NCBI GenBank assembly: GCA_024637145.1
Contig: JAGXFQ010000039.1
Span: 2,860-66,859 of the forward strand
Length of the DNA stretch: 64,000 nucleotides
Source of the DNA: Desulfobulbaceae bacterium
Lineage (GTDB): Bacteria > Desulfobacterota > Desulfobulbia > Desulfobulbales > SURF-16
Reading direction: 5' to 3'
The first letter of the stretch is position 1. Every line of letters starts with the position of its first letter. This document shows, piece by piece, positions 6,543-38,217 of the stretch. Below the pieces are notes generated by a model. That model was not told where the DNA came from. It did no database searches and was given only the letters and a program-made list of their open reading frames with translations. The translations under genes and the position numbers were made by a program.

Positions 6543-6857
6543 GCGGTTTTCATCCTTGACGACTATCTTTCCTGACGGAGGATGGTCGTCAAGACGGACA
6601 AAAATTTCCGGAATTACGAAATTCCGGGGACAATCTCTTGCCGCCCAAGGTACTTTACCGCGCCGGCATGGCCTCAATTGGCCCGCTGAGGACCGCCCCC
6701 GCATCCACACCCCAGGGACCTCACGCTCAAGCAGCTCTTTGGCCAAGATGACCCCGCAGCGATTTTTTTTTGTTGAACCCTTGGCAAGGAAAGGAGATCA
6801 TCGTCTCCCCTGCGCCAAACCAAGAGCTTTTCCTGGTTCACCCTCAGGCCCCAAGAG

Positions 6858-7475
6858 TCAAGGGCGGCCCGGAATCACTTTTTTGAGTAATGAATGCAGG
6901 GGCCATAACCACAACAACGGCACAGCCACCAGATAAAGCAGCAACCAAAGGGGCTGGGAGATCCACTCCCACTCATGGACCTGGGGATTAAAGACCCAAT
7001 TTATATTCTCGGCCGGATCCGTCAGCCCAAAGGTTGCCAGCGTCAGGAGCACGAAAACCACGATGACCGACTTAAAGGAGCGCGGATCGTAGCCCCATTT
7101 CCACAACAACCAGAGCCAGAGCGGCGGCAGGGGGAGATGAAAAAGGGAGAGTCCGCGTAAAAAGAGACTCATCTCCGCATCAAACATATAGGCGGCAACG
7201 CCGAGAAAGGCACTCCCCATGAGCAACTGCCAGATAAAATCGACCATCCAGACCAGCTCAAAAAGCAGGGCGAGAAGCACTATCATGCTATTGAGCAGCC
7301 GACTTTCGCGCCACAGAACAAAGAGGGTCGCAAAGAGCGCCACATCCGAAATCCACAGAAAATGGCGCAGGCCATATTCATACCAGTAGACCGGAAATAA
7401 GAGGGCCACGAATGCGGTGGCAATGAGTTTGACAGCCAGTGGAACCGGCCTGCTTATCGATGGAGAGTATGGCAC
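6858..7475 (-). CDS. Polytopic membrane protein, unknown function
   Basis: 205-aa ORF made almost entirely of hydrophobic, Trp/Leu-rich helices. Roughly 6 TM segments by eye. Confidence 0.6.
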   Translation of the reverse strand: MPYSPSISRPVPLAVKLIATAFVALLFPVYWYEYGLRHFLWISDVALFATLFVLWRESRLLNSMIVLLALLFELVWMVDFIWQLLMGSAFLGVAAYMFDAEMSLFLRGLSLFHLPLPPLWLWLLWKWGYDPRSFKSVIVVFVLLTLATFGLTDPAENINWVFNPQVHEWEWISQPLWLLLYLVAVPLLWLWPLHSLLKKVIPGRP

Positions 7476-7750: not shown

Positions 7751-8986
7751 ATGGCTGTGAGTGGCATTCCCACCAGTTATTCTATTCCGCCTCCGACCCT
7801 TACCAGCCGGGAAAGGGCACCGGTGCGACTTCCTCCCCCTCGGCCTGAAGCGGAGGAGCAGGAACAGGCAGCTGCACCGGTGCTGTCAACAGCGGAGGCC
7901 CTGCAGGACAATGAACTGCTGATTAACGAGATTCTGCGCAACTTGCTGTTTCCCCCTGCAGAGCCGGCAGACATCGGCATCTTCGACACCAGGTCGCCAC
8001 TACTCACCGTGCTGCAGGAGACCGAAGAGCTCTCCCCCCTCCAGCAAAGCGCCCTGCTGGTGAACGACATCCTGCGCAATCTGGGCGTTACCCCGGCCGA
8101 ACCAACGAGCCCCCTGTTGATCGATAACATGCCGGCCGCCCTGGAGGCCGCGGAAATAATCGAGGATCTGTCCCCCATCCAGCAGAATCTCTATTATGTC
8201 AACGAAACTCTGCTGGATCTTGGTTTCAGGCCCCCCCTTGGTCAGCCACAGCTACCGCCCGGACCCTTTCCTGTCACCATGGCGACCCAAGAGGAAATAA
8301 TCCCCGCAATGACAGCGGCAGGCGCCACGGCTGCCCCCCCCATTCTCGCCCTCACCCTGGCGCGCCAAGAACCTGTCATCATCACCCCGGTTACTCTCCC
8401 AGCGACGGCTCCCCCTGGGGCCGTTCCCCCTTCAGAGCCCGGAGAAGAGGCGGGTTTAACGGCCAGGGGAATATTCATGCGCCAAGAGATCACCCCCGCA
8501 ACCCTGCCTATAAGCCTTTTTCCAGAAAGAATTCCTTACGTGTTTGCTGTGTATATAATCGATAATCCCACCCCAGGGCCAAGTCTGATGGGGGAACCCC
8601 TTGATGTGGAGCTGCCGCCGCCCACCGCCATCACCAAAATAAGGGCGGTGGGCCAAGCGCGTCTCAGACAGGCCCACTTTCGTGAAAGGGGTGGTGAACA
8701 AAGCGGAAATATCGAATATAATGAGCCCCCGGTTACGGCCGGCCAGGTGGCAAAATCCATCCGCCATTCCCTTGACCTGATTAATGGGGAGCTGGCGGCA
8801 CAGAACAAGCCTTTTCATCTTGTTTTTGCCAGACACGACAATGACTTTGGCCTGGATCTGTATGACTGTTCTGCCAGCGATGCCTGCCGGAAGACGTATG
8901 AGGTCCCCATTCCCCTCGACAATCTGGCTGGGATGCTCGCCAAGATGGAGCACAAAACCGGAATTATCATCGACACTGATTCGTAA
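7751..8986 (+). CDS. Pro-rich repeat protein with C-terminal FlaG-like domain
   Basis: 411-aa ORF. The C-terminus FHLVFARHDNDFGLDLYDCSASDACRKTYEVPIPLDNLAGMLAKMEHKTGIIIDTDS follows the FlaG pattern (L.F..h......V.v.D..t.e.iR.iP.e..l.....m....G...D). The N-half has about 2.5 tandem repeats of about 46 aa (LLINEILRNL..PAEP..SPLQQ). Confidence 0.6.
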   Translation: MAVSGIPTSYSIPPPTLTSRERAPVRLPPPRPEAEEQEQAAAPVLSTAEALQDNELLINEILRNLLFPPAEPADIGIFDTRSPLLTVLQETEELSPLQQSALLVNDILRNLGVTPAEPTSPLLIDNMPAALEAAEIIEDLSPIQQNLYYVNETLLDLGFRPPLGQPQLPPGPFPVTMATQEEIIPAMTAAGATAAPPILALTLARQEPVIITPVTLPATAPPGAVPPSEPGEEAGLTARGIFMRQEITPATLPISLFPERIPYVFAVYIIDNPTPGPSLMGEPLDVELPPPTAITKIRAVGQARLRQAHFRERGGEQSGNIEYNEPPVTAGQVAKSIRHSLDLINGELAAQNKPFHLVFARHDNDFGLDLYDCSASDACRKTYEVPIPLDNLAGMLAKMEHKTGIIIDTDS

Positions 8987-9656: not shown

Positions 9657-12600
9657 ATGAATCCCTTCGCCATTGCCAAAATCAACAGCCCGTCTCCGCC
9701 TGAGGGCCTGCTTCGCCAGAGATTGTTCCGACTCATCGACTCCCCCCCCCTGCGCCCGATTATGTGGATTTGCGGTCCGGCCGGCTCGGGCAAGACCACC
9801 TTGGCGGCCAGCTACCTGTCGTTTCAGCAGCACCGCAATCTGTGGTATCAGGTCGATGCAGGCGACGCAGATATCGCGACGTTTTTTCACTACCTGGGTC
9901 TGGCGAGCCAAAATGCCGCTCCCCGGCCCCCACAACTGCCGATCTTTTCCCCTGAATATCTCGAAGAGATAACCGTTTTCGCCCGGAGATATTTCATCGA
10001 GCTGTTCGCCGCAGTGGCAGACAACAGGGATGGCGACAGCGCTGCGGACAACCCCTACTTCCTCACTATTGACAACTACCAGGACGTCCCGCCTGAAGCG
10101 CCGTTGCATGAGGCGCTGGCGGCCGGCCTTGATGCGCTGCCCACCGGGATCAGGGTTATCGTCATCAGCAGGGAGGAGCCACCCCGGCAATACACCCGTC
10201 TGCGGGCCAATGGCCGTATCGCCATGATCGGCTGGAGCGACCTCAGGTTTACCCGGGAAGAATCCAGCGCCCTGCTCACCCACCACTACCAGGTAAAACA
10301 CAGTGCCGGTGACCTGGATCTGCTCTATGCCAGGTCTCAGGGCTGGGCAGCCGGACTGGTACTCTTTAACGAAAGCCTGCATATTGACAACACAGCCCTC
10401 AGCTTTCCGGAAGAATCGCCGCCCCATGAGGAGATTTTCGAATATTTCGCCGAAGAAGTCTACCGGCACCTGGCCACTGATATTCGTTCTTTTTTGATAA
10501 AAACAGCCTTTCTGCCGCAGATAACGCCACAATGCGCCGGGATTATCGCAGAAACAGAGCAGGCGGCCGCCATCCTCAGCACCCTGAGCCGCAGAAACTG
10601 CTTTACGGAAAGGCGAATCCTGCCCCAGCTTACCTATCAGTATCACCCGCTTTTTCGAGAATTTCTTCTCACCAAGGCGGCCACGCTCTTTTCCGCCCCG
10701 GCCATTGTGCGCTTGCAGCGCCAGGCAGCCCAGCTCCTGGAGAAGAACGGGCGCATTGAGGATGCGGTAGCGCTGCTCCTGGACGGGGACGACTGGGACG
10801 AACTTGTGCCGATTCTCGCCGCCAATATTCCTCTGCTGCTGGCCCAGGGCAGAGCCAAAACCGTCCAGGAATGGCTGCATAAAATTCCCGAGAAGATCCG
10901 GATACAGAACACCATACTCACCTATTATCTCGGCATCTGCCGGATGCATCTTGATCCGGCGGCCGCCTTGGCACTCCTTGAAACCTCTTTCAGAGAGGCC
11001 TGCCAACAAGGCAATGATGCCCTGGCCCTGACCAGTTGGTCGGATGCGGTGATCACTATCCTGCATGGCTGGAACGATTTCACCATCCTCGATAACTGGA
11101 TTGCCTGGCTGGAAATTAGGGTGGAGAGGGAACCGCCCCTGCCGGCCGGCAAAATCGAAGCCAAGGTGGCAGTCAGCATGGCCGGGGCCCTTATTTTCCG
11201 ACGCCCGGATCAGCCCGCAATGATCAGGCCGTGGCTGAACAGGGCTCTGCAGCTGAGCCGGGAAACGGCTGACGCCAATCTTCAGGCCCAGATTATCTGC
11301 TACGCCCTGCAGTATTACAGTTCTCTAGGCGACACCATCAATACCGAGGTTATCCTCCTGGAACTCAGGAGCATCCCCAGTGCCGCAATCACCTCGCCAA
11401 CGGCCGTTATCACCCTGAAGTGGATTGAAGCCGTGTCCTGCAACTGGCGGCTGGCAAACCCGGAGGCGGGCCTGCGGTTAATCAACGAAGGCCTGGACTT
11501 TGCCAAGGCCAACGGCCTCTCTTCCGGCAACGACGTCCTTTTTGCCGTGGGGGCCTATTGTGCCCTGCTCAAGGGCGATTTAGCCAGGGCCGGAGACTTC
11601 ATCAGGCGTATCGAAAAGACCCTCAACCGCAACAGATTTCACAGTTTCTGCCAGTACAATTACATCACCGCTTTTTATCAACTCTTGCAGGGGGATGTCC
11701 CTGCCGCCCAGCGCCACGCAGAAATCGCCTTACAATATGCCTCTGAAACCGGGATCTTTTTCCCGGTGCTGTTCTGCCGGCTGGCCCTGGCGCACATCAC
11801 GCTGGAGAGCGGTGATTATCAGCAAGCCGGCGAACACCTTGACCTGGTTGCTGAGCCGCTGACAAAGTCGGAAAGCGGCATTTTGACCTATTCCTTTGAA
11901 CTGGCCCGGGCGCGTCTGGCCTTGGCCACCGGCAAAAAAGCCGAGGGGCTCTTTTTTCTCCGTCAGGCCCTGCAACTTGCCCGCAAAAACGGCTACACCT
12001 GGCTCTTTTGGTGGTGGCACCCCGCCAGCATGGCGCGGCTATGCGCTATTGCCCTGGAAGCGGGCATTGAAGTGACCTATACGCAAAAGATCATCCGCAC
12101 CTGCAGGCTCAAACCGGCAGCACGGGCCGTCATCTCAGATACCTGGCCCTATCCTTTACAGATCACAACTCTGGGACGTTTTGGCATCATCCAGGATGGC
12201 CAGCCTTTGCTCTTTTCAGGAAAAGAGCCGCGTAAGCCCCTGGAGATGCTTAAGGCTCTGATCGCCTTTGGCGGCGATAATGTCAGAGAAGAACAGATAA
12301 GTGAGGCCCTCTGGCCGGAAGCAGACGGCGACGCAGCCCACAAATCCTTTGAAGTCTGCCTGGTCCGGCTCCGGAAACTGGTGGGCGGCCAGCAGGCCAT
12401 CCGTTGTCAAGGCGGCCTGGTAAGCATCAAGGCCGGATGGTGCCGGGTTGACGCCCTGGTTCTTGCCGATATTCTCGAGGAGGCTGAAAAATCGTGGCTG
12501 CACGCAGACCACCGACCGGCCGCGGCCTTGCCGGCGGATCATTTCGGTCAGGCCGTGCACAAAGCGGAGGGGGCGGTGAACATATACAATGGTGACTTTC

Positions 12601-26881: not shown

Positions 26882-27601
26882 GTGAGCAGTGACAATTATC
26901 CCAGGGCTCAGGACCCGTTATTCACAATTATGCCCCCTATGCATCGTATAGTCCAGCCCGGACGGCTGCCAGGAACACTCCGCTCAGAATCGGGAGAAGA
27001 GCTTACCCCGGCTGCGGACTGGGCCTTTCTTCCTGCCGGGGATGCAGCCATCACCAGAAGTGTCAAGGCCCAGACCGACACCTGGGTCGTCCAGATACGC
27101 CGGGGCAAGAGGCTGATCTCCACGGGCATCTGGGCCAAAGAAGCGACCATCCTGGCCGCACAGCAGGAGGTCGAAGCCAAGAGATCAACCCCGGAATATG
27201 AGGGACGGCGACAAAAGGATCTTGCCCGACGCCAAGCCAGACATAATGCCTATGTCGACGAGTTTTGCGCTGAGGTCATCCATTTCCTCGATTTTCATCC
27301 GCGCTATGGGCAGATGGCCTCTCTTCTTGCCGGGAAAATCACTGCCCACGCCACCCCGGTGGGAAGCGGCACCGTGGCAAGGACCGAACGGATCCCCGTG
27401 GCCAGACGGGCAGAGGCCGCGGTTATCGCCTGGCTGCGGCATCAGACCACGGCCTACGACTCCATGCGTATCGCCCGGATAAAGGGCAAAAGAAAAGAGG
27501 TGCGCAGAGAGCTCGCCGTAAAATCTGTCGCGGTACTGCAGCCCTATCGGCAGGGCCTTGATATTGCCGCACACTGTCCCCTGCAAAAAACCTTGGCCTG
27601 A
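26882..27601 (+). CDS. DUF2293-like protein
   Basis: 239-aa ORF (GTG 26882; ATG alternatives at 26930 and 26939). The C-half ..VARTERIPVARRAEAAVIAWLRHQTTAYDSM.IARIKGKRKEVRR resembles DUF2293 as I recall it. Confidence 0.5.
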   Translation: MSSDNYPRAQDPLFTIMPPMHRIVQPGRLPGTLRSESGEELTPAADWAFLPAGDAAITRSVKAQTDTWVVQIRRGKRLISTGIWAKEATILAAQQEVEAKRSTPEYEGRRQKDLARRQARHNAYVDEFCAEVIHFLDFHPRYGQMASLLAGKITAHATPVGSGTVARTERIPVARRAEAAVIAWLRHQTTAYDSMRIARIKGKRKEVRRELAVKSVAVLQPYRQGLDIAAHCPLQKTLA

Positions 27602-28083
27602 GATCTGCCAGCGCCTTCTTCCCTGCCCTTAATCATGCGGGATTGCCTGCCCCCTCTCCCCTTGCCCACCACAACCCAGCCGGATCACCTGGAGGCAGCG
27701 ATCCGATGCCCACAGAAAATGGTCTCTTTGCCGGTGGAGCCGTATACCCTGCCGACGTTGTTTATCCTGTCCATTCCCCGCCAATCTGTACCCCCATAAA
27801 CCCCGCCTCAGAAAAAGTTCACAAGGCCCCCCCCTCCAGCAAAGAACATAAAGGCCTCCCAGTTGAGCGCCGCGAACGTATTTCCCCTCCTTGCCAACCA
27901 AAAACCATGATATTTATGAATTTAATTTGACAAGTTACGTCCTTTGATCATAGCGTTAGAACTGCATGGGAGAAAACCCGTCATACTCATGTTGGCCTTT
28001 GGTCAGTGATTGACCAAAAACGACCAGCAGAATCCGCTCATCAGGCTCTATTTCAAAATACACATTCCTCGGAGAACATTGCA

Positions 28084-28575
28084 ATGAACATGACCGAAAT
28101 CAAGTCAAAGGCCAGAAACCTAGGAGTACAGGTCGGCAGGCTGCCGAAGAAAGATCTCATTCGCTCTATCCAGAACAAGGAAGGCAACTTCCCCTGCTTT
28201 GCCACCGCCAAAGATTACTGCAGTCAAAAGCTGTGCTGCTGGCGCGATGCCTGCCTGCCCACCAAGAAAAAGAGCCTGACCGCCTGGGAAACGAAAAAAA
28301 ATACCTACACCGAGAAACTGACTGTTCAACTTGCGGAGCTTAAAAAAGAAATCACGGAGCTTAAGAAAAAGACCAAGACACTAGTGGGTAAGGGCAAGGA
28401 AGAGGCCGTGGCTGACATCAACAAGATTGAACTCAAAATGGCGGAGCTCAAGGAAAAGAGTCAAAAGCTTGCCGTTGCCACTGAAGACGCCTGGAAAATC
28501 AAGAAAAAGGCCCTTGACGATATCAGGGACGATCTCAACAAAACCTTTAAGAAGGCAGTAAAAAAATTGAAATAG
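28084..28575 (+). CDS. Rho_N/SAP-like domain protein with Cys motif and Lys-rich coiled-coil tail
   Basis: Trimmed to the ATG at 28084. MTEIKSKARNLGVQVGRLPKKDLIRSIQNKEGNFPCF....DYC....CCWRDAC follows the Rho-termination-factor-N-like/SAP pattern with conserved Cys. The remainder is a K/E-rich helix. Confidence 0.55.
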   Translation: MNMTEIKSKARNLGVQVGRLPKKDLIRSIQNKEGNFPCFATAKDYCSQKLCCWRDACLPTKKKSLTAWETKKNTYTEKLTVQLAELKKEITELKKKTKTLVGKGKEEAVADINKIELKMAELKEKSQKLAVATEDAWKIKKKALDDIRDDLNKTFKKAVKKLK

Positions 28576-28788
28576 AGATACGCTCCGTCCGCTTGGGATG
28601 GGAATTGGGAGAGGGGGTGGTGGTCAGTGGTGTGTCAAGAAGAGGTAAGGCTATAAGGGCCAGGACTGAAGAAAAGGGGTATCAGCGCCATACTCTCCGC
28701 TAGACAGAGAGTGTGGCCCGCCCAAAAAAGTGCCCCCAGTAGAGATATCAACCGCTTTGACCCCTATCAATAGGCTGGCTCACGCCCC

Positions 28789-29232
28789 CTATTGATAGGG
28801 GTTAAAGGTAAGGACTGGACAGGGGGCCTTTTTCACCACCCTCCCGGCCACCGAGCCCAGCAGGATCTTCTCAAGACCCTTGACACCGTGGGTGCCAATG
28901 ACCAGCAGATCGGCCTTTTCATCAGTGGCATACTCTATAATACCATCCTCCACATCACCCACCAGCACCTTGCCGGTACACTTGACAGACTCTGAGCTGT
29001 TATCTGTCAGCAGATGCTCCATCTTTTTTTCGGCCTGCTGGCGGAGCTCATTTTCAACATCCTCAAAAGAAGGGTGGGCAATACCTGCATAGCGGCCGCC
29101 ATACCCCTCTGCCACATGGACAAAAGAAACGTTGGCCGCAAAGCATTTGGCCACATAGACGGCATATTCAACAATTTTAGCCGTATGCTGAGAAAAATCT
29201 ACAGGGACAACTATTTTGCGAACTTCCTTCAT
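28789..29232 (-). CDS. Universal stress protein (UspA family)
   Basis: 147-aa ORF. It has KIVVPVDFS..., ...DLLVIGTHGVKGLEKILLGSVAGRVVKKAPCPVL and a G-x2-G-x9-G(S/T) ATP-binding-type motif. Confidence 0.85.
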   Translation of the reverse strand: MKEVRKIVVPVDFSQHTAKIVEYAVYVAKCFAANVSFVHVAEGYGGRYAGIAHPSFEDVENELRQQAEKKMEHLLTDNSSESVKCTGKVLVGDVEDGIIEYATDEKADLLVIGTHGVKGLEKILLGSVAGRVVKKAPCPVLTFNPYQ

Positions 29233-29285
29233 GGCTTTTCCTCCCTTTTTTTATCTCAAGCGCGTGGCTGCCGCACCTTTTGACC

Positions 29286-29301
29286 TGGCCACTTACTTGC
29301 C
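29286..29301 (+). promoter_or_regulatory. Sigma-54-type -24/-12 promoter candidate far upstream of rtcB
   Basis: TGGCCACTTACTTGCC has GG at 29287-88 and GC at 29299-300 with 10 nt between them (TGGC-N7-TTGC). It lies about 275 nt upstream of the rtcB ATG. Confidence 0.35.
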
Positions 29302-29573
29302 TCCCTACTTTTAGTAAGTATAAGCCCGGCCCTCTGCAAATATCAAGATGGAAATAGAGATCAGCCAGCCGAGCCAGGGCCCTAAACTATATATCTCCAC
29401 CATGGCCACGGCTCCATTGACTTGCCAGCCCTGTTCTTCTTATCATTGTTTGACAGAAACTGGGCAAACGCACTGCCGTCTGCCTGGAGCCAGGGATTTC
29501 CCCTTCCTTGGCCCGGGGCGTCGGCAAATGTCTTCTTTAAGGCACCATGCCTGGGTCTGCTAGCGGGGCAGCC

Positions 29574-30749
29574 ATGAAAACAGAAATACGCAGCGAAAAG
29601 CTGCCCATCAAACTCTGGCTTGACGACATTGAAGAGGGGGCCTTAGAACAGGCCAGACACCTGGCTAACCTGCCCTTCAGCCACAAGCATATAGCAGTAA
29701 TGCCGGATGCCCACCTGGGCTACGGCATGCCCATTGGCGGCGTCATGGCCACTCATGGTGTCATTATCCCCAACGCCGTGGGGGTGGATATCGGCTGCGG
29801 CATGTGCGCCCTGCAGACCTCCTTGAGCAACATAAGTACCGATCAGCTCAAGGCAATCATGAGTGGTATCCGCCGCCTTGTCCCCCTGGGATTCAGGCAT
29901 CATGACACCAAACAGAAGAGGGAACTCATGCCCAAGCCGCCGGCAGGACTCTCACTTACCGACCTGCCCATTGTCCACCAGGAGTATGAGCATGCCCGCA
30001 CCCAGCTCGGCACCCTGGGCGGCGGCAATCATTTCATCGAGATCCAGAAAGGCAGTGATGGCCATATCTGGATCATGATCCACTCAGGTAGCCGCAATCT
30101 GGGTTTCAAGGTGGCCAATTTTTACAACAGAGTGGCCAGCCAGCTTAATGCCCAAGGGGGTTCAAATATCCCGGTCAACTGGCAGCTTGCCTACCTCCCC
30201 CTGGATTTGCCGGAGGGCCGCCAATATCTCGCCGAGATGGAGTACTGTGTCACCTTTGCCCTGGCCAACCGCACCTTTATGATGGAGCGGATCAAGGATA
30301 TTTTCCAGCTCGTCAGCGGCACCGTGAAGTTCGGCACCTTTATCAATATTGCCCATAACTATGCGGCCCTGGAAAACCACTATCACCAGAATGTCATGGT
30401 CCATCGCAAAGGGGCCACCCGCGCTCTGCCCGGTGAGTATGGTATCATTCCCGGTTCCCAGGGTACCCCCAGTTACATTGTGCAGGGTAAGGGCAATGAG
30501 GAGAGTTTCCACTCCTGTTCCCATGGCGCCGGCCGCCGCATGGGCCGCAAACAGGCGCAACGCCAACTCGACCTGGAAGATGAAAGAAAAATCCTGAATG
30601 ATCAAGGCATCATCCATGCCCTCCGTTCACGCCGGGATCTGGACGAGGCTGCCGGGGCCTATAAAGAAATCGACAAGGTCATTGACAATCAGCTGGACCT
30701 GGTGGAGGTGGTGGTTTCCCTGCGTCCCCTGGCCGTAATTAAGGGTTGA
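29574..30749 (+). CDS. rtcB: RtcB-family RNA 3'-phosphate ligase
   Basis: Trimmed to the ATG at 29574. It carries VMPDAHLGYGMPIGGV, VGVDIGCGM, GGGNHFIEIQ, HSGSRNLG, HNYA, HRKGAT, GS.G..SY and SCSHGAGR, the full set of RtcB metal/GMP-His motifs. Confidence 0.9.
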   Translation: MKTEIRSEKLPIKLWLDDIEEGALEQARHLANLPFSHKHIAVMPDAHLGYGMPIGGVMATHGVIIPNAVGVDIGCGMCALQTSLSNISTDQLKAIMSGIRRLVPLGFRHHDTKQKRELMPKPPAGLSLTDLPIVHQEYEHARTQLGTLGGGNHFIEIQKGSDGHIWIMIHSGSRNLGFKVANFYNRVASQLNAQGGSNIPVNWQLAYLPLDLPEGRQYLAEMEYCVTFALANRTFMMERIKDIFQLVSGTVKFGTFINIAHNYAALENHYHQNVMVHRKGATRALPGEYGIIPGSQGTPSYIVQGKGNEESFHSCSHGAGRRMGRKQAQRQLDLEDERKILNDQGIIHALRSRRDLDEAAGAYKEIDKVIDNQLDLVEVVVSLRPLAVIKG

Positions 30750-31065: not shown

Positions 31066-32721
31066 ATGACAGAAGAAGTCAGCTGGGCCAGGTCGCCGCA
31101 CGAGGAGCGGCGGACAAGGCAGGACCTGCGCGCCCACCAGATAGAACTGGAACTACAGAATGAGACATTGCGGCAGACCCAGGAAGACCTTCTGGTCTCC
31201 CAGAAGAAATACGCCGACCTGTACGACTTTGCCCCGGTAGGCTACCTGACCGTAAGCGCCGGGGGCTTGATCACGGAGGCCAACCTCACTGCCGCCAGAA
31301 TGCTGGGTCTGGAAAGAGGCGTTCTTATTAAAAAACCGCTCTCTCTGTTTCTGGCCAAGGAAGAGCAGGACCGCCATTATCTCTGCCGGAATCGACTTCT
31401 GCAAGACAAAGAACAACAGACCTGCCACATGCCCCTGCAGAGAAAGGATGGCCGGGAATTTGACGCCCAATGCCGATGTGTCACCAGTCCGGGTGTGGAC
31501 GGCAATGACGGCCAATTCCGCATGGTGATCACCGACATCTCCGAACAGAAAAAGGCTGAACGGGAAAAAAACAGACTGGCGGTCCAACTTCGTCAATCCC
31601 ACAAAATGCAGGCCGTGGGAACCTTGGCCGGCGGCATCGCCCATGAGTTTAACAACCTCCTTGGCATTATCATGGGCTTTGCCGACCTGGCCCGGGAACA
31701 GATCCCCACCGACAACCTGGGCCGACAACACCTGGACAAAGTGATGGTCGCCTCGCACCGGGCAAAAAATCTGGTGCAGCAGCTGCTCACCTTCAGCAGG
31801 AAGTCCCCCCATAAACGGACCCCCACCTCCCTGCAACCGCTGCTCAAAGAGTCCATCAGTCTTATTAAGCCGTCCCTGCCGGCTTCAGTGCAGATCAATG
31901 AGGACATAGCCTCCGGCTCCTTCAGGGTGCTTATTGACCCCACGGAAATCCAGCAGATAGTCATGAATGTCTGCGCCAACGCTGTCTGGGCCATGCGCGA
32001 AAAAGGGGATCTGGCCATCAACCTCAGGCAGGTGCAGCAATCAGACAAAGAGCCCGCAACAGCAGACCTGCCTGCAGGCAAATATGCCTGCCTCTCTTTC
32101 AGAGATAGCGGCCCCGGCATGGACAAGCAAACATTGGCCAGGATTTTCGACCCCTTTTTCACCACCAAAGAGGTGGGTCAGGGCACGGGCATGGGATTAT
32201 CCATCCTGCATGGCATCATGACAAGCTGTAGTGGCAAGATCCTGGTGGAGAGCGAGGTGGGCACCGGTACAACCTTCCACTTTTACCTGCCGCTCACCAC
32301 GGAACCGGACGTAGCCGGGCCTCCTGAAATCACAGAATACCTGGGTCACGGCGAACATATCCTTTTTGTTGACGACGAAGAATTGTATGCGGAAATGAGC
32401 TGCGAGATGCTCTCCTACCTCGGCTATAACATCGACCTGCAGATAAACAGCGCGGCTGCCCTGGCTGCCTTCAAGGCTGATCCTGACAAATATGACTTGA
32501 TCATCACCGATCAGATTATGCCCAACCTGTCAGGGGATGATTTGACAAAGGAAATCCGCACCCTGCGGCCGACAATCCCCATCATTCTGTGCACCGGCTA
32601 TAGTAATCAGATTAATGCGGAAACAATCAAGGTCCTGCACATCAATGCCTTTGTCATGAAACCGCTGAGCAAGGGGGAGCTTCCCAGGCTGATCCGCAGG
32701 ACGCTGGATAGCGGCAAATGA
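31066..32721 (+). CDS. Hybrid sensor histidine kinase (coiled coil-PAS-HisKA-HATPase_c-REC)
   Basis: PAS (YDFAPVGYLTVSAGGLITEAN), H-box GGIAHEFNNLLGII, N-box NVCANAVWAM, G-boxes RDSGPGM and GQGTGMGLS. The C-terminal receiver has ILFVDDE ... LIITDQIMP ... K. Confidence 0.85.
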   Translation: MTEEVSWARSPHEERRTRQDLRAHQIELELQNETLRQTQEDLLVSQKKYADLYDFAPVGYLTVSAGGLITEANLTAARMLGLERGVLIKKPLSLFLAKEEQDRHYLCRNRLLQDKEQQTCHMPLQRKDGREFDAQCRCVTSPGVDGNDGQFRMVITDISEQKKAEREKNRLAVQLRQSHKMQAVGTLAGGIAHEFNNLLGIIMGFADLAREQIPTDNLGRQHLDKVMVASHRAKNLVQQLLTFSRKSPHKRTPTSLQPLLKESISLIKPSLPASVQINEDIASGSFRVLIDPTEIQQIVMNVCANAVWAMREKGDLAINLRQVQQSDKEPATADLPAGKYACLSFRDSGPGMDKQTLARIFDPFFTTKEVGQGTGMGLSILHGIMTSCSGKILVESEVGTGTTFHFYLPLTTEPDVAGPPEITEYLGHGEHILFVDDEELYAEMSCEMLSYLGYNIDLQINSAAALAAFKADPDKYDLIITDQIMPNLSGDDLTKEIRTLRPTIPIILCTGYSNQINAETIKVLHINAFVMKPLSKGELPRLIRRTLDSGK

Positions 32722-33686
32722 GCTTTCTTAACATTCACCAGAATCAAGTTGCAAAGGATGCCTTCATGACCAGCAATGTTTCTATTCTTATTGCAGACGA
32801 TAACCCTGACTACCTGGAATTGCTTCAAAATTTCCTGTCATCCTTCGGCCATCAAAAGGTGATGCTGGCCCATGACGGCCTGGCCGCTGTTGCTCTGCTT
32901 GAGAAAAACACCTTTGATATCATCATTACCGACATCAAAATGCCGCACATGGATGGCATGCACCTTATTCACCATGTCAAGACCCATACCCCCTTGACCG
33001 ATATCATGGTGATGACCGGCTTTAGCTCCGAGTACAGCTTCAACGATATCATCAAGGCCGGAGCCATTGAATATTTGAGTAAGCCCTTTACCAGGGATGA
33101 ATTGGAGGCCAAACTAAACCGGGTGATCCGGGAGCGAAATTCCGTGGCCTTGCTGCAAAAAGAAATCAGGGAGCGTAAGCAGGTGGAGAAAAAATTGCGC
33201 CAGGCCCGTGACGGACTGGGTATCCAGGTAGCGGATCGGACAAAGGCCCTGGAGCGCCAAAAGGCCCGACTCGAACAGACCAATACGGCTCTCAAAATCC
33301 TCCTTGATAAAAGAGAACAGGACAAGCAGGACCTGGGGGATCAGGTCATGGCCCAAGTCAAACAGCTTATAGATCCTTATATCAATATGTTACACAGCAC
33401 CAACCTCAATGATGAACAGAGCGCCGTACTCAACATCATCACGGCAAATCTACAGGAAATCGTCTCCCCCTTTGCCCAGAGGTTCTCGGCCATGCAGGCC
33501 CGTTTAACCCCCACGGAAATCAAGATCGCCAATTTGATCAAACAAGGCATGACTTCCAAGGATATCGCCGCTCTGTTAAAATCATCCCCCGGCACCATCG
33601 ACATTCACCGCAAAAATATCCGCAAGAAATGTGGTCTGGCCAGCAAGAAGCTCAACCTCCGCAGCTTCCTGCTTTCCCGCCAATAA
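32718..33686 (+). CDS. Response regulator: REC - coiled coil - LuxR-type HTH
   Basis: The ATG at 32718 overlaps the kinase stop (ATGA); the alternative ATG is at 32766. It has ILIADDNPDY..IIITDIKMPHMDG..K, then a helical linker, then LTPTEIKIANLIKQGMTSKDIAALLKSSPGTIDIHRKNIRKKCGL. Confidence 0.85.
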   Translation: MSFLNIHQNQVAKDAFMTSNVSILIADDNPDYLELLQNFLSSFGHQKVMLAHDGLAAVALLEKNTFDIIITDIKMPHMDGMHLIHHVKTHTPLTDIMVMTGFSSEYSFNDIIKAGAIEYLSKPFTRDELEAKLNRVIRERNSVALLQKEIRERKQVEKKLRQARDGLGIQVADRTKALERQKARLEQTNTALKILLDKREQDKQDLGDQVMAQVKQLIDPYINMLHSTNLNDEQSAVLNIITANLQEIVSPFAQRFSAMQARLTPTEIKIANLIKQGMTSKDIAALLKSSPGTIDIHRKNIRKKCGLASKKLNLRSFLLSRQ

Positions 33687-33868
33687 TGGATATATTAACT
33701 ATCTATTCCATATCTCATTTTCCCCCATTGCCCACTTCACCCCTTTGCTATTAAAAATATACTGCGTCGCCAAACAGTAATTGTCTTTTTTCAAGTAAAA
33801 AAATCTTATTAGAGAAGCGACAAGATTGCCTCTGTCGCCTTTATCAGAAACATTTGGGAGAAATCAGC

Positions 33869-34420
33869 ATGCCTCTGCCACAAAGTATCGAGAACTCAGA
33901 AGCACCCCCCAAACAGGGGGTTTTTAATTTCAAGAAACTGATGGCAAAGACGGCCGTCCACCTGGGTATCAAGCTTGAGGCCAAAGGGTTTTTCCTGGAT
34001 ATCGCCGTATCCCCCGAGATCCCGCGCTACTTCCACGGCGATCCTCAGCTGGTTGAAAAAATAGTACACACCTTGGTGGGCCACAGCATGAAATGCCTCG
34101 ATAATGGCGGCATTACCATCCGCATCAACACCCTTGATTTTACCGCCCAAGGCAACCATCGCCTGGTTATCAGCATCAATGAATCAAGCCATGGCATGAT
34201 GCCGGAAGAAGTGCAGACCATCAACCAATCTCTCCAAGAACAGCAGTGGCAGGATACAGATGGAACCATCTCTCCACACCTGTGCATAGCCGCCAAATGG
34301 ATCCAATCACTGGGCGGTCATCTCACCATAGAGAGTGTGTTCGGATGGGGAACTAGGTATCTCATCACCCTCAATCTCTGCGTGGCAGGGTGTGACAATT
34401 CCTGCCTGGGGGCCGCCTAA
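33869..34420 (+). CDS. Stand-alone, degenerate HATPase_c-like protein (pseudo-kinase ATP-lid domain, no DHp/His)
   Basis: ATG at 33869 has GGGAG 8 nt upstream. GDPQLVEKIVHTLVGHSMKCLDNGGITIRI matches the N-box region but Asn is replaced. LVISINESSHGMM replaces the D-x-G-x-G G1 box. ISPHLCIA replaces G-x-G-L-G. The end GGHLTIESVFGWGTRYLITL is the normal HATPase_c C-terminus. Confidence 0.6.
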   Translation: MPLPQSIENSEAPPKQGVFNFKKLMAKTAVHLGIKLEAKGFFLDIAVSPEIPRYFHGDPQLVEKIVHTLVGHSMKCLDNGGITIRINTLDFTAQGNHRLVISINESSHGMMPEEVQTINQSLQEQQWQDTDGTISPHLCIAAKWIQSLGGHLTIESVFGWGTRYLITLNLCVAGCDNSCLGAA

Positions 34421-34513
34421 AGAGAGTACCCCCTGGTCACCCTCCTTAAAAGCCCCTTCTGCTTCTTATTTTTTTCACAAAAAAAAGCCTTTATTGCCAA
34501 CTCGGAGTGAATC

Positions 34514-35695
34514 ATGGCCAACAAACCAGATGATATCTTAGATTTTTTACTGCCGGTGAACAACAACCTCAATTTGGGCAAAGCGTACAGAAGCATTGAG
34601 GATGCTGCCTTTCATATTTTACAACCCAAGGTCTATGAAGAACTGGAACACCAGGTGGCGCCCATCCAGGCCGAGGACACTGAGTGCCTGAAGATCCTCC
34701 AAAAAGCTGCCCGAGGGCTCTTACAAAGAAACAACATCAAGGGGAGTGTTCAAGGCAGGATCAAAAGTCTCTACAGCCTTCACTGCAAAATGGCCCGTAA
34801 AGGGGTCAGCCTTGAAACCATCATGGACCGCGTCGCTCTGCGGATAATCGTCTCCAGCGTCCCTGAATGCTACCAGGTTTTAGGCCTGCTCCATGCCCAT
34901 TTCCAACCGGTTCCCGGCACCTTTATGGATTACATCGGCCAGCCCAAGGAAAACGGCTACCAATCCCTGCACACCTGCGTTTATCCGTTTCGCGATATTT
35001 CACATAAAAACATTGAATTTCAAATCCGCACCGAACTGATGCATACAGAGGCGGAATATGGTGACGCCGCCCACTGGAAGTATAAAGAGGGAACCGGCTC
35101 AATTATCACCGGCAACCAGGTAAAACGCGCCGGCCAGGAAGCTCAGAACCAGCAGCAGCAAGAACCCATAGGTACAGCTGCCTTTATTAAACTTCTCTGC
35201 CAGCAGATGGCGGCTGACCATATCGTTATTTTTGGTACCAGCGGCCACAAGGTGTGGCTTCCGGAAAACGCCACGGTGGAGCACTATTTAAAGAAAACCA
35301 ACAGCACTCTTTCTCCGCCCCCCTTAATCAAAGTAAATAACAGAACCGTGGCCCTGGGTCATATCCTGAAAGATGCGGACACCATTGAAGTCATTGCGCA
35401 GGGAAAAGTGCCGCGGCAAAGATCTGTCCCTGCCAGGCGCCCGCGCCGACCTATCTATGGCACAAAACAGCCAACCTCCCGAGGTTCCGCCTGGAAAACA
35501 AACCCACCTCTGCCGTCAAGCCGGCAGCTCATCTCAAAGGATCTGGGCAAGACGACGCGGTGCAGCACAGACAAGAAGGGCGATGCCGCACATAATGCAG
35601 CAGAGAGGAGTCGCGGCCGGGATATGTGGAGGCCAGGACCCACGCCGGCCTCCCCCCTCTTCCCTACAGACTTCAAAAAAAGCTCTGTTCAATAG
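34514..35695 (+). CDS. RelA/SpoT-family (p)ppGpp synthetase domain + TGS domain, no HD hydrolase domain
   Basis: RIKSLYSLHCKMARKG, DRVALRIIV, ENGYQSLHTCV and EFQIRTELMHTEAEYGDAAHWKYKEG are all the synthetase motifs. They are followed by a TGS-like IVIFGTSGHKVWLPENATVEHYL...TIEVI. Only about 80 aa precede the synthetase domain. The last approx 100 aa are Arg/Pro/Ser-rich low complexity. Confidence 0.8.
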   Translation: MANKPDDILDFLLPVNNNLNLGKAYRSIEDAAFHILQPKVYEELEHQVAPIQAEDTECLKILQKAARGLLQRNNIKGSVQGRIKSLYSLHCKMARKGVSLETIMDRVALRIIVSSVPECYQVLGLLHAHFQPVPGTFMDYIGQPKENGYQSLHTCVYPFRDISHKNIEFQIRTELMHTEAEYGDAAHWKYKEGTGSIITGNQVKRAGQEAQNQQQQEPIGTAAFIKLLCQQMAADHIVIFGTSGHKVWLPENATVEHYLKKTNSTLSPPPLIKVNNRTVALGHILKDADTIEVIAQGKVPRQRSVPARRPRRPIYGTKQPTSRGSAWKTNPPLPSSRQLISKDLGKTTRCSTDKKGDAAHNAAERSRGRDMWRPGPTPASPLFPTDFKKSSVQ

Positions 35696-35776
35696 AGATA
35701 CGATCTTTGCACGAAAGGATTCGTGTTGTCCGGCGCACAGCAAAGAGACAACACCTATCCTGCCATAATAATTTGA

Positions 35777-35788
35777 GGGGGGGGGGGG
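35777..35788. repeat. G12 homopolymer tract
   Basis: Twelve consecutive G (35777-35788) lie in the 253-bp gap between the convergent RelA/SpoT-like and ABC-F genes. Confidence 0.95.
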
Positions 35789-35948
35789 CATGTCTCCTGT
35801 TCCTCTTTACTCCCTGCATCTGTTGAGGCAGGGCCGCGTTCACAGGGGACAACAAAGGCAAAGAACTGGAGAAAAGACAACTTCCTGTTCTTCATGGTGG
35901 TAGATCATGGGCAAAAAAAGTTGCCGTTCAAGATCCACCACCATGATG

Positions 35949-37568
35949 TTACGCTGATAATTCAAGCCGCAACTTGGCCACCCTCTCATCAAGCAGATAC
36001 TCGTCAAAGGGCATCATCTGATCGATAATGCCACCGGGAAGAATCTCCACGATGCGGTTGGCAACGGAGGAGACGAACTGGTGATCGTGGGAGGTGAAAA
36101 GCACCACCTCGGGGAAGGCGATCAGGGCATTATTAAGGGCGGTGATGGACTCGAGATCAAGATGGTTGGTGGGCTCATCCAGAATCAGGGCATTGGCCTC
36201 GGAGAGCATCATCCGCGACAACATGCACCGCACCCGCTCCCCACCTGAGAGCACCGATGTTTTCTTCAGGGCCTCTTCCCCGGAAAAAAGCATCTTGCCC
36301 AGGAAACCGCGGGCAAAACTCTCTCCCTCGGTGACCGGGGTAAAACGGCTCAGCCATTCCACCAGGTTGGTATTATCCTGAAAAAAGGCGTTATTCTCCT
36401 TGGGAAAATAGGAGGTGGACATGGTCACTCCCCACCGAAAGCTACCGCTATCAGGGGCCATATCCCCGGCCAGAATGGCGAAAAGAGTGGATTTGGCCAG
36501 GCTGTTGGTGCTGCCGACAAAGGCGATTTTCTCCCCTTTATTGACGGTCAAACTGAAATTCTCCAGCACAGAGACGCCGTCCACCTCCTTCCCCAACTCC
36601 GTAATTTCCAGAATATTGTCACCGCAGGACCGACTTGCCTTAAATTGGATAAAGGGATACTTGCGGGAGGAAACCGGCATATCCTCAATGGTCAGCTTCT
36701 CCAAGAGCTTTTTACGGGAAGTTGCCTGCTTGGCCTTGGAGGCGTTGGAGGAGAAGCGCTGGATGAAATCCTTGAGTTCCTGGGCCTTGGTGGACACCTT
36801 TTTGTTCTCGTTCTGTTTCTGCTGGAGGACAAGTTGGCTGGCCTCGTACCAAAAATCATAATTGCCCACATAGACAGTGACCCGGCCGAAATCGATATCC
36901 GCCATATGGGTACAGACCTGGTTTAAGAAATAACGGTCATGGGAGACGATGATCACCGTGTTGGTGAAACGCTCCAGGAAATGCTCCAGCCAGGTGATGG
37001 AATCGATATCGAGGTTGTTGGTGGGCTCATCGAGAAGCAGGACATCCGGATTGCCGAACAGGGCCTGGGCCAGGAGGACCCTGACCTTCTCGCCACCCTC
37101 AAGATCCTTCATCTTCTGATGATGGAGATTCTCGCCAATACCGAGACCGGCCAGGAGGGTACCGGCCTCAGACTCGGCCTCATAGCCATTCATCTCACCA
37201 AACTCGGCCTCCAGTTCCCCGCTGCGGATACCGTCCTCGTCAGTGAAATCGACCTTGGCATAGATGGCCTCACGTTCCATCATCAGCTCATAGAGGCGAG
37301 CATGCCCCATGATCACGGTATGAAGAACGGTCTCCTCATCAAAGGCAAAATGATCCTGGCGCAGCATGGCCAGGCGCTCCCTTGCTCCCAGGGAGACCTC
37401 TCCCCGATCCGGTTCAATCTCGCCGGCCAGGATCTTCAGGAAAGTGGACTTGCCGGCACCATTGGCGCCGATGAGCCCATAGCAGTTGCCAGGGGTGAAC
37501 TTAATAGTGACGTCTTGAAAGATGACCCTTTTGCCATAGGAGAGGGCGACATTATTGGCGTTTATCAT
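35949..37568 (-). CDS. ybiT: ABC-F family ATPase (YbiT-like)
   Basis: 539-aa ORF collinear with E. coli YbiT as I recall it. There are two ABC cassettes with no TM domain. The first Walker A is GANGAGKST, the signatures are LEGGEKVRV and LSGGERVRC, and the Walker B motifs are LLLDEPTN and LILDEPTN. The second P-loop is atypical (GSTNSLAKST). Confidence 0.85.
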   Translation of the reverse strand: MINANNVALSYGKRVIFQDVTIKFTPGNCYGLIGANGAGKSTFLKILAGEIEPDRGEVSLGARERLAMLRQDHFAFDEETVLHTVIMGHARLYELMMEREAIYAKVDFTDEDGIRSGELEAEFGEMNGYEAESEAGTLLAGLGIGENLHHQKMKDLEGGEKVRVLLAQALFGNPDVLLLDEPTNNLDIDSITWLEHFLERFTNTVIIVSHDRYFLNQVCTHMADIDFGRVTVYVGNYDFWYEASQLVLQQKQNENKKVSTKAQELKDFIQRFSSNASKAKQATSRKKLLEKLTIEDMPVSSRKYPFIQFKASRSCGDNILEITELGKEVDGVSVLENFSLTVNKGEKIAFVGSTNSLAKSTLFAILAGDMAPDSGSFRWGVTMSTSYFPKENNAFFQDNTNLVEWLSRFTPVTEGESFARGFLGKMLFSGEEALKKTSVLSGGERVRCMLSRMMLSEANALILDEPTNHLDLESITALNNALIAFPEVVLFTSHDHQFVSSVANRIVEILPGGIIDQMMPFDEYLLDERVAKLRLELSA

Positions 37569-38142: not shown

Positions 38143-38217
38143 TGGTGACCCCTAGGGGAATCGAACCCCTGTTACCGGCGTGAGAGGCCAGTGTCCTGAC
38201 CGCTAGACGAAGGGGCC
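38143..38217 (-). tRNA. tRNA-Glu (anticodon CUC)
   Basis: The 75-nt reverse complement is GGCCCCTTCGTCTAGCGGTCAGGACACTGGCCTCTCACGCCGGTAACAGGGGTTCGATTCCCCTAGGGGTCACCA. It folds as a cloverleaf with a 7-bp acceptor stem, D arm GTCT/GGAC, anticodon stem CTGGC/GCCGG with loop CTCTCAC, T arm AGGGG-TTCGATT-CCCCT, and an encoded CCA. It is near-collinear with E. coli tRNA-Glu. Confidence 0.9.

Follow-up and report, generated by a model that had tools for sequence, protein, structure and literature searches.

In Staphylococcus aureus, induction of the alarmone synthetase genes relP and relQ is VraRS-dependent. In Streptococcus mutans, the small alarmone synthetase (SAS) gene relP shares an operon with relRS, a two-component system (PMC4963387, citing Lemos 2007), and control of a hydrolase-less synthetase by a two-component system is already known from this case. 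Here we describe a four-gene locus within a 64,000-nucleotide stretch of the genome of an uncultured sulfur-cycle bacterium (Desulfobulbaceae in the assembly record, here taken as Desulfurivibrionaceae; GCA_024637145.1, contig JAGXFQ010000039.1), hereafter the window, which encodes, in order, a hybrid histidine kinase (HK), a response regulator (RR), a stand-alone catalytic ATP-binding (CA) domain protein of 183 aa that we name pCA, and a RelA/SpoT homolog (RSH) with a (p)ppGpp synthetase (SYNTH) domain. On balance, we think it probable that this is a lineage-specific stress-signaling locus, in which the two-component system controls a monofunctional alarmone synthetase at the level of transcription.

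The wiring of the locus, which the initial annotation did not recognize as described, has a precedent in relPRS of S. mutans (PMC4963387). As in that system, a hydrolase-less synthetase lies beside, and is apparently controlled by, a two-component system, and the alarmone level would be set by expression rather than by ribosome sensing. However, the synthetase of the window is a truncated long-RSH paralog that keeps a probable TGS domain, not a SAS of the RelP/RelQ type. In addition, the genes are arranged as HK-RR-pCA-RSH instead of relP-relR-relS, with a regulator of the LuxR type and an intervening pseudo-kinase gene, and the host belongs to another phylum.

Among long RSH proteins, Atkinson et al. 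(2011, PMC3153485) define RshD from delta-proteobacteria, including Desulfotalea and Syntrophobacter, and describe RshC as truncated after the TGS. The nearest relatives of the window RSH resemble these groups, as described there, in being second-copy RSH proteins of 450–500 aa with an HD_4-SYNTH-TGS architecture that ends shortly past the TGS, whereas the window RSH additionally lacks the whole N-terminal (pseudo-)HD region. Secondary domain loss in long RSH has been reported for RickRel and RickSpo (Jimmy et al. 2020, PMC7229694). In these, too, a long-RSH descendant lost a domain to give a shorter monofunctional enzyme, but here two domains (SYNTH and a probable TGS) rather than one are kept, and the lineage is different. 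Finally, the degenerate CA domain of pCA recalls RetS and RcsD, which contain non-catalytic kinase-like domains that regulate phosphorelays by binding. Those two are large, membrane-bound, and multidomain, with a DHp-like or Hpt domain, whereas pCA consists of a CA domain alone, with no DHp. What appears to be new at the present locus is the origin of a SYNTH-TGS protein by loss of the pseudo-HD from an RshD-like paralog, its recruitment behind an RR-pCA pair, and the pCA family together with its candidate operator dyad.

Organization of the four-gene locus

The four genes are consecutive open reading frames on the plus strand (31066–32721, 32718–33686, 33854/33869–34420, and 34514–35695), with an RtcB gene upstream (29547–30749) and a convergent ABC-F ATPase gene downstream (35949–37568, minus strand). 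The common strand and the domains assigned in the initial annotation are confirmed by the list of open reading frames and by Pfam, with the TGS and the RR start qualified below. The features of the locus are listed here, where dN/dS is the ratio of nonsynonymous to synonymous substitution rates, pLDDT is the per-residue confidence of the AlphaFold2 (AF2) models, and L001 and L004 are related loci.

31066–32721, plus strand: soluble hybrid HK with N-terminal coiled coil, PAS, HisKA, HATPase_c, and REC (Pfam; motifs in translation; dN/dS 0.23 vs. L001)
32766–33686, plus strand: RR with REC, a coiled-coil linker of ~110 aa, and a LuxR/GerE helix-turn-helix (HTH) (Pfam; start revised from 32718; dN/dS 0.07–0.13)
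33687–33705, no strand: candidate operator dyad TGGATA-N7-TATCTA, 3′ of the RR stop codon (intergenic alignment; exact-match scan)
33736–33763, plus strand: σ70-like promoter candidate TTCACC-16-TATACT, 3′ of the dyad (consensus scan only; weak)
33869–34420, plus strand: pCA, a stand-alone degenerate CA (Bergerat-fold) domain without DHp, of an unnamed 160–205-aa family (Pfam; alignments; AF2; dN/dS 0.24–0.26)
34421–34513, plus strand: pCA-RSH spacer of 93 nt that carries, 8 nt upstream of the RSH ATG, the ribosome-binding site GGAG (scan negative for terminator-like and promoter-like sites)
34514–35113, plus strand: RSH residues 1–200, remnant of the central helix bundle and SYNTH, with all synthetase motifs (Pfam; structure alignments; dN/dS 0.18 vs. 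L001, 0.14 vs. L004)
35114–35401, plus strand: RSH residues 201–296, low-confidence linker and divergent TGS (beta-grasp) (alignments; AF2; dN/dS 0.26)
35402–35695, plus strand: RSH residues 297–393, basic Pro/Arg-rich tail, unconstrained and predicted disordered (dN/dS ~1.2; pLDDT ~30; no homology outside L001)
35716–35761, plus strand: hairpin with 15-nt arms, 21 nt past the RSH stop (tentative; no clear T-run after it)

The last of these is a probable, if tentative, end of the plus-strand transcription unit. The initial annotation had seen no terminator between pCA and RSH, and a simple scan agrees, finding no terminator-like site in that spacer or between RR and pCA; its sole match (33904–33921) lies inside the start of the pCA coding region. 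A search of the spacers against Rfam for riboswitches and other RNAs returned nothing at the gathering score, the lone sub-threshold match (mir-633) being attributable to chance.

RSH is related to a family of pseudo-hydrolases

RSH has one Pfam domain above threshold, RelA_SpoT (PF04607, E 1.3e-35, 122.5 bits against a cutoff of 27). Its residues 9–297 match positions 138–424 of TIGR00691 (spoT_relA, E 4e-63), and its alignment with experimental structures of Rel and RelA (B. subtilis Rel, 6yxa; M. tuberculosis-type RelA, 8fr8) runs from about residue 160 of these through the TGS, the start of RSH itself being the equivalent of B. subtilis Rel residue ~160–166. The synthetase motifs are all present, namely RxKxxxSxxxK, the catalytic Asp in D-x-x-x-R-I, YxxxxxNGYQSLHT, ExQIRT, and AAHWxYK, and they are invariant in an alignment of RSH relatives (A1, P0003–P0117). 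Pfam gave no HD_4 or HD match in RSH, and a tblastn search of the window with an HD-bearing paralog (P0004, see below) matched only through P0004 residues 181–449, at the known RSH gene, and revealed neither an HD remnant nor a second RSH in the window.

The SYNTH-TGS architecture that had been assigned to the protein is secure for SYNTH and needs qualification for the TGS, which is divergent and falls below the Pfam threshold (TGS, E 0.039; ThiS, E 0.007) but is supported by the TIGR00691 and Protein Data Bank (PDB) alignments, which extend to residues 295–301, and by the AF2 model, in which residues 235–294 form a beta-grasp-like segment (pLDDT 58–82). Past residue ~300, no model or structure match was obtained, and the helical, zinc-finger/CC, and ACT/RRM domains of long RSH proteins were not found. 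RSH is not a SYNTH-only SAS as Atkinson et al. (2011) define it, as a TGS-homologous region is kept, and the weaker score of the YjbM model (E 8e-11, vs. 4e-63 for spoT_relA) places it nearest the long-type paralogs rather than RelP/RelQ.

The core of RSH is under purifying selection, with dN/dS of 0.21 in comparison with L001 and, for SYNTH, 0.14 in comparison with L004 at a synonymous divergence (dS) of ~1.4. Between the window and L001, the gene shows no frameshifts and a single 6-nt in-frame indel. The possibility that RSH is a frameshifted long RSH was rejected, as three-frame translation of 35300–35960 revealed no helical, CC, or ACT remnants; the finding of only that one indel argues against it as well. 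In contrast to the core, residues 297–393 have a dN/dS of ~1.2 between the window and L001, a pLDDT of ~30, and no homologs outside the nearest relative. These last 97 codons thus appear to evolve neutrally, are predicted to be disordered, and may be a read-through extension.

Among 5.8 billion proteins searched, only one close relative of RSH was found: P0002, which is 85% identical and comes from the Desulfurivibrionaceae metagenome-assembled genome (MAG) Uz-K9-06. The other matches are at most 59% identical and are mostly Thermodesulfobacteriota proteins of 450–500 aa with HD_4, SYNTH, and TGS/ThiS-like regions. In alignment A1, the catalytic HD of the hydrolase motif of this parent family reads AP or SP, and xFDD replaces the RxKD motif of Rel; the proteins end just past the TGS. 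Because the hydrolase HD reads AP or SP, we take the parent family, which is common in Thermodesulfobacteriota, to consist of RelA-like pseudo-hydrolases, that is, predicted monofunctional synthetases that lack ribosome-binding domains. Judging from taxonomy and architecture, it probably corresponds to RshD of Atkinson et al. (2011); in the available part of PMC3153485, we did not find the AP-for-HD replacement stated for RshD-like proteins.

MAG Uz-K9-06 contains both paralogs, the HD-less P0002 in a four-gene cluster (L001) and the HD-bearing P0004 beside groESL (L002). Because the same MAG holds both, the window RSH can be assigned by homology as an N-terminally truncated paralog of a pseudo-HD-SYNTH-TGS family of ~470 aa, not as the only copy of the organism. 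The earlier label "hydrolase-less" is apt in that no HD domain is present, but it describes a smaller departure than it suggests, as the hydrolase of the parent was already dead (HD to AP). Among the GTDB species representatives, the one known MAG was the only carrier of an HD-less RSH. A scan of metagenomes with the RSH N-terminal alignment yielded generic long RSH only (38–44% identity), the motif being the pan-family AAHWKYK, and was left unused. A general link of the parent family to two-component genes was also considered and rejected, as none was consistent in three contexts (groESL, Mla/AsmA, and glycosyltransferase).

pCA is a degenerate CA domain without DHp

The initial annotation had called the third gene product a stand-alone degenerate HATPase_c protein, and this description is borne out. 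Pfam detects HATPase_c alone (PF02518, E 7e-7), with no HisKA match and no DHp, the protein opening at the start of the CA domain as judged from its alignment to GacS (7z8n, residues 162–314). The ATP-binding motifs are lost: the N-box Asn is replaced by His72, the G1 box DxGxG reads E105-S-S-H-G, and the G2 box GxGLGL reads T-I-S-P-H-L. From these replacements, pCA is predicted to be a dead CA domain. The AF2 model (pLDDT 90) has a Bergerat fold, the best Foldseek matches being the CA domains of ETR1, GacS, and RetS (E 1e-12 to 1e-13). At the sequence level, pCA aligns to the CA domains of GacS (7z8n) and RetS, the latter among the best PDB matches, and its top NCBIfam match is the RcsD pseudo-kinase region (E 9e-16). 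The gene is under purifying selection (dN/dS 0.24–0.26).

A word-indexed search found only three pCA clusters. In contrast, an exhaustive profile search recovered a family of stand-alone proteins of 160–205 aa that outrank true kinases (E 1e-29 to ~1e-11) and comprise at least 25 clusters. An alignment of 27 members shows the common motifs PRYFxGDP and GWGTRY, with the N-box Asn and the G2 box missing throughout; 22 of the 27 give a weak Pfam HATPase_c match. A metagenome scan with the pCA alignment found no further instances.

Within the first 20 codons of pCA lies the GC-rich hairpin with a T-run picked up by the terminator scan at 33904–33921 (ACCCCCCAAACAGGGGGT TTTTAATTT). The annotation of the MAG begins pCA 3′ of this hairpin, at Met25. 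An attenuator-like function of this hairpin is possible, as is a chance match.

The sensor kinase and its response regulator

HK (Pfam PAS, HisKA, HATPase_c, and REC) is intact as read from its translation, with the H-box (AHEFNN), the N, G1, and G2 boxes, and the receiver Asp all in place, and no membrane segment is apparent in the translation. RR contains REC (PF00072, E 2.6e-28) and GerE (PF00196, E 6e-10) joined by the ~110-residue linker, and its DD...D...K residues supply the acceptor Asp and the Lys. RR is thus a NarL/FixJ (LuxR-type) regulator, with a REC domain that carries the acceptor Asp and a C-terminal GerE HTH.

The start of RR had been thought to overlap the HK stop. The ATGA is present (32718–32721), but RR probably starts at 32766. 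The 16-codon extension that the overlap would require (window 32718–32766) is broken by a TAA in the 92%-identical relative L001 (L001 8155–8205), and in all relatives the start is the Met equivalent to that at window 32766, with a conserved AAAGGA Shine-Dalgarno sequence. Because of this interruption and the start common to all relatives, the HK and RR genes are most likely ~44 nt apart rather than overlapping.

The LuxR-type regulator, not RSH, is the conserved neighbor of pCA

Comparison of related loci separates three lineages and two distant arrangements:

Lineage 1 (window and L001; 92–94% DNA identity): RtcB, HK, RR, pCA, and RSH, then convergent ABC-F
Lineage 2 (L087 and L004; ~77% DNA identity, dS ~1–1.4): end of HK (REC), RR, pCA, and HD-less RSH with the same start
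Lineage 3 (L086 and L003; RR 73% and pCA 57% identical): RR then pCA, with no adjacent HK and no RSH
Distant (L092, P0232; pCA 27% identical): REC-PAS-GerE regulator, then pCA immediately downstream, and no RSH
Distant (L093/L094, P0230; pCA 25% identical): divergent REC-PAS-GerE regulator, pCA, small REC protein, and kinase, and no RSH

The order common to the window and L001 is uninformative because their DNA is 92–94% identical. Lineage 2 carries more weight: the order is kept there at a dS of ~1–1.4, with dN/dS of 0.14 for the RSH SYNTH, 0.25 for pCA, and 0.07 for RR. The HD-less RSH was found in these two related lineages only, always directly after pCA and across a spacer of 93–109 nt. 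Synteny of all four genes extends to lineage 2 but not to the pCA family, as three of the five independent pCA lineages with visible downstream context (L086/L003, L092, and L093/L094) have no RSH. In lineage 3, the flanks consist of an ion-channel gene upstream on the opposite strand and, downstream, a 182-aa gene (unknown) and an ABC-F fragment. The conserved neighbor of the pCA family is a REC-(PAS)-LuxR regulator, not RSH. As the conserved pair is pCA and its LuxR-type RR, RSH is an add-on; it appears to have been added once, behind a preexisting RR-pCA pair, before lineages 1 and 2 diverged from each other.

Two of these loci have further peculiarities. Past AAHWKYK, the L087 RSH continues instead with the linker and TGS of a canonical Rel-like protein (FLESVKMDLFPDEVYVFTPKGD), which suggests an assembly chimera with the true Rel gene of the organism, or recombination. 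Beside the distant pCA homolog of L093 lie a 113-aa stand-alone HisKA (DHp-only) protein (9861–10202, minus strand) and an 80-aa REC protein (6629–6871); here the parts of a kinase are in separate genes, possibly forming a split phosphorelay.

A candidate operator accompanies RR and pCA

Alignment of the RR-pCA intergenic regions of four loci from three lineages reveals a peak of conservation right after the RR stop, with the sequence TRGATA-N7-TATCYA, a 19-bp dyad. It follows the RR stop in lineages 1, 2, and 3. Exact matches occur at seven loci, representing five independent lineages, compared with ~0.2 expected by chance in the ~0.97 Mb of fetched loci, and every one of them lies 3′ of an RR homolog or upstream of a pCA homolog. 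In L091, the dyad abuts the stop codon of a reading frame ending in ...FLP, ~175 nt upstream of a 30%-identical pCA, and a variant, TGGATA-N5-TATCC, is found in L093/L094, 55 nt before the pCA of 25% identity. The window contains one exact match only, at 33687–33705. A second dyad upstream of the kinase, which would have pointed to autoregulation, was not found, the other near-match in the window (60671) being mismatched and unrelated. The promoter candidate at 33736–33763 would put the center of the dyad near −74.

In L088 (GCA_054928395.1), a one-mismatch copy of the dyad (8958–8976) stands directly after an RR, and an exact copy (9755–9773) precedes an HSP20 gene downstream of the HK-RR pair. 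The locus consists of an HK-RR pair of 40% identity followed by genes for a single-domain REC protein and HSP20, which hints at a broader role of the regulator family in the control of stress genes.

A model for transcriptional control of RSH and its alternatives

We propose that a cytoplasmic signal is sensed by the PAS domain and that HK then phosphorylates RR. Phosphorylated RR would bind the candidate dyad and activate a promoter before pCA, so that pCA and RSH would be cotranscribed and their expression would raise alarmone synthesis. Because RSH lacks a hydrolase and the ribosome-binding (helical, zinc-finger, and ACT/RRM) domains, its output would be mainly abundance-dependent, with (p)ppGpp synthesis set by the amount of RSH and not by ribosome sensing, and degradation of the alarmone would be left to an enzyme encoded elsewhere. 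pCA itself would chiefly serve as partner or target of the regulator family, rather than as a subunit dedicated to RSH, and would exert inducible, RetS-like feedback on the kinase or the regulator. We regard feedback on the phosphorelay, by protein binding, as its most plausible role because pCA is a conserved neighbor, and candidate regulon member, of this regulator family.

Several points weigh against the proposed scheme. The cotranscription of pCA and RSH and the binding of RR to the dyad are steps that we infer from sequence, the promoter match is weak (9/12 of consensus), and the pCA-RSH spacer, with its low conservation (75% in near relatives), may conceal a promoter of its own. Phosphotransfer directly from HK to RR is assumed, as HK carries its own receiver and no Hpt protein is encoded nearby. 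The RSH carriers belong to two lineages that are uncultured and related, such that synteny could partly reflect inertia. Finally, codon 64 of the L087 RSH (1992–2729, GCA_041558055.1) is an in-frame stop, in contrast to the Lys found in contig L004, which is 98.9% identical and comes from another sample.

It is also conceivable, though unlikely, that a truncated RshD-like duplicate landed behind pCA by chance and is expressed independently, with no pathway joining the four genes. Such an accident would be compatible with the restriction of the HD-less RSH to two related lineages, with the lack of a consistent two-component link in the parent family, and with the close identity of the window and L001, at which shared synteny is uninformative. 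It sits poorly with the order kept at dS >1, whereas in the sister lineage, L086, the flanks were rearranged, with genes on the same strand and short spacers without terminator-like sites, and with purifying selection on RSH.

The initial annotation had proposed a single signal-transduction module in which the phosphorelay output, or the pseudo-kinase as an adaptor, gates alarmone synthesis. That the two-component system and the synthetase are functionally linked is plausible, given the gene order of lineage 2, the conserved dyad, and a pCA-RSH spacer in which the scan found no terminator-like site. Gating at the protein level goes further: pCA would bind the SYNTH-TGS protein or bridge it to the kinase or regulator, replacing the lost pseudo-hydrolase as allosteric partner, so that the state of the phosphorelay would switch the synthetase directly. 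The TGS of long RSH enzymes is a protein and RNA interaction module, and it has probably been kept here; the HD-less RSH stands directly behind pCA in both lineages with a spacer of 93–109 nt, the loss of its N-terminal regulatory domain coincides with the gain of pCA as a neighbor, and non-catalytic kinase domains such as that of RetS, among the best matches of pCA, act by protein binding. However, the pCA family is older and wider than its association with RSH, and its invariant neighbor is the LuxR-type regulator. Because pCA mostly occurs without RSH, a dedicated adaptor is not favored, and we judge direct gating distinctly improbable. More speculative still is a fuller version in which pCA represents a new family of stand-alone, nucleotide-blind CA domains with obligate REC-(PAS)-LuxR partners and the TRGATA dyad, and acts here as a trans-acting regulatory subunit of RSH that replaces the lost pseudo-hydrolase. 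If true, the state of the phosphorelay would be converted directly into alarmone synthesis; conversely, pCA might detect the alarmone through its remodeled pocket and act back on the kinase.

We give very little credence to the idea that RSH, and perhaps pCA, are rearrangement fragments on the way to becoming pseudogenes. About 160 N-terminal codons are gone relative to the parent family, the 97-codon tail is neutral, L087 has its in-frame stop, and pCA lacks ATP-binding motifs and DHp, all as decay would predict. Yet the RSH core evolves at a dN/dS of 0.21 (L001), and of 0.14 even at a dS of ~1.4, its synthetase motifs are all intact, the window and L001 differ by one in-frame indel and no frameshift, and pCA has a dN/dS of ~0.25, a pLDDT of 90, and a family of at least 25 clusters with conserved motifs of its own.

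Least credible of all is a toxSAS-type toxin-antitoxin or defense module with RSH as toxic synthetase and pCA as antitoxin, as known for several SAS subfamilies (Jimmy et al. 2020, PMC7229694): the pairing of a small protein with a hydrolase-less synthetase in a bicistron and a weak PADLOC match of SYNTH to the candidate PDC-S33 (E 6e-17) fit it, but that match is generic to SYNTH, RSH is far nearer to long RSH (TIGR00691, E 4e-63) and to chromosomal paralogs (≤59% identity) than to defense models, which speaks against a toxSAS subfamily, pCA mostly occurs without RSH, and the locus lies in conserved core-gene synteny with no signs of mobile elements.

Surroundings of the locus

The region upstream of the locus (window 26882–30749) is rich in stress and repair genes and is syntenic with L001. 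It comprises DUF2293 (26882–27601), an sll1863-family stress protein (28006–28575), a universal stress protein (28789–29232, minus strand), and the RtcB RNA ligase (29547–30749). Downstream, a run of 12 G residues lies at ~35779–35790, and an 86-nt stretch within 35850–35946 is missing from L001. It contains an inverted repeat with 18-nt arms (35892–35909 and 35929–35946) just past the ABC-F stop codon, possibly a terminator or else a small repeat insertion. A tRNA gene (38146–38217, minus strand; Rfam, 60 bits) separates the ABC-F and 4-alpha-glucanotransferase genes.

Implications

The impact of these findings is moderate, because the principle as such was known before and the locus has a narrow distribution, in two lineages of uncultured Desulfurivibrionaceae-like bacteria. 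It nonetheless offers a concrete, testable case, in sulfur-cycling Thermodesulfobacteriota and thus outside Firmicutes and Gammaproteobacteria, of how bacteria with several (p)ppGpp synthetases assign each to a signal. It also outlines a route to SAS-like enzymes, in which a long-type RSH would have its hydrolase inactivated, then lose the domain, and then come to lie behind a two-component system. The SYNTH-TGS arrangement separates the probable TGS from the ribosome-binding domains and could help to show what the TGS does alone. Finally, a family of apparently dead, stand-alone CA domains that travels with LuxR-type RRs and shares a candidate operator with them would provide a new handle on the accessory proteins of two-component systems.

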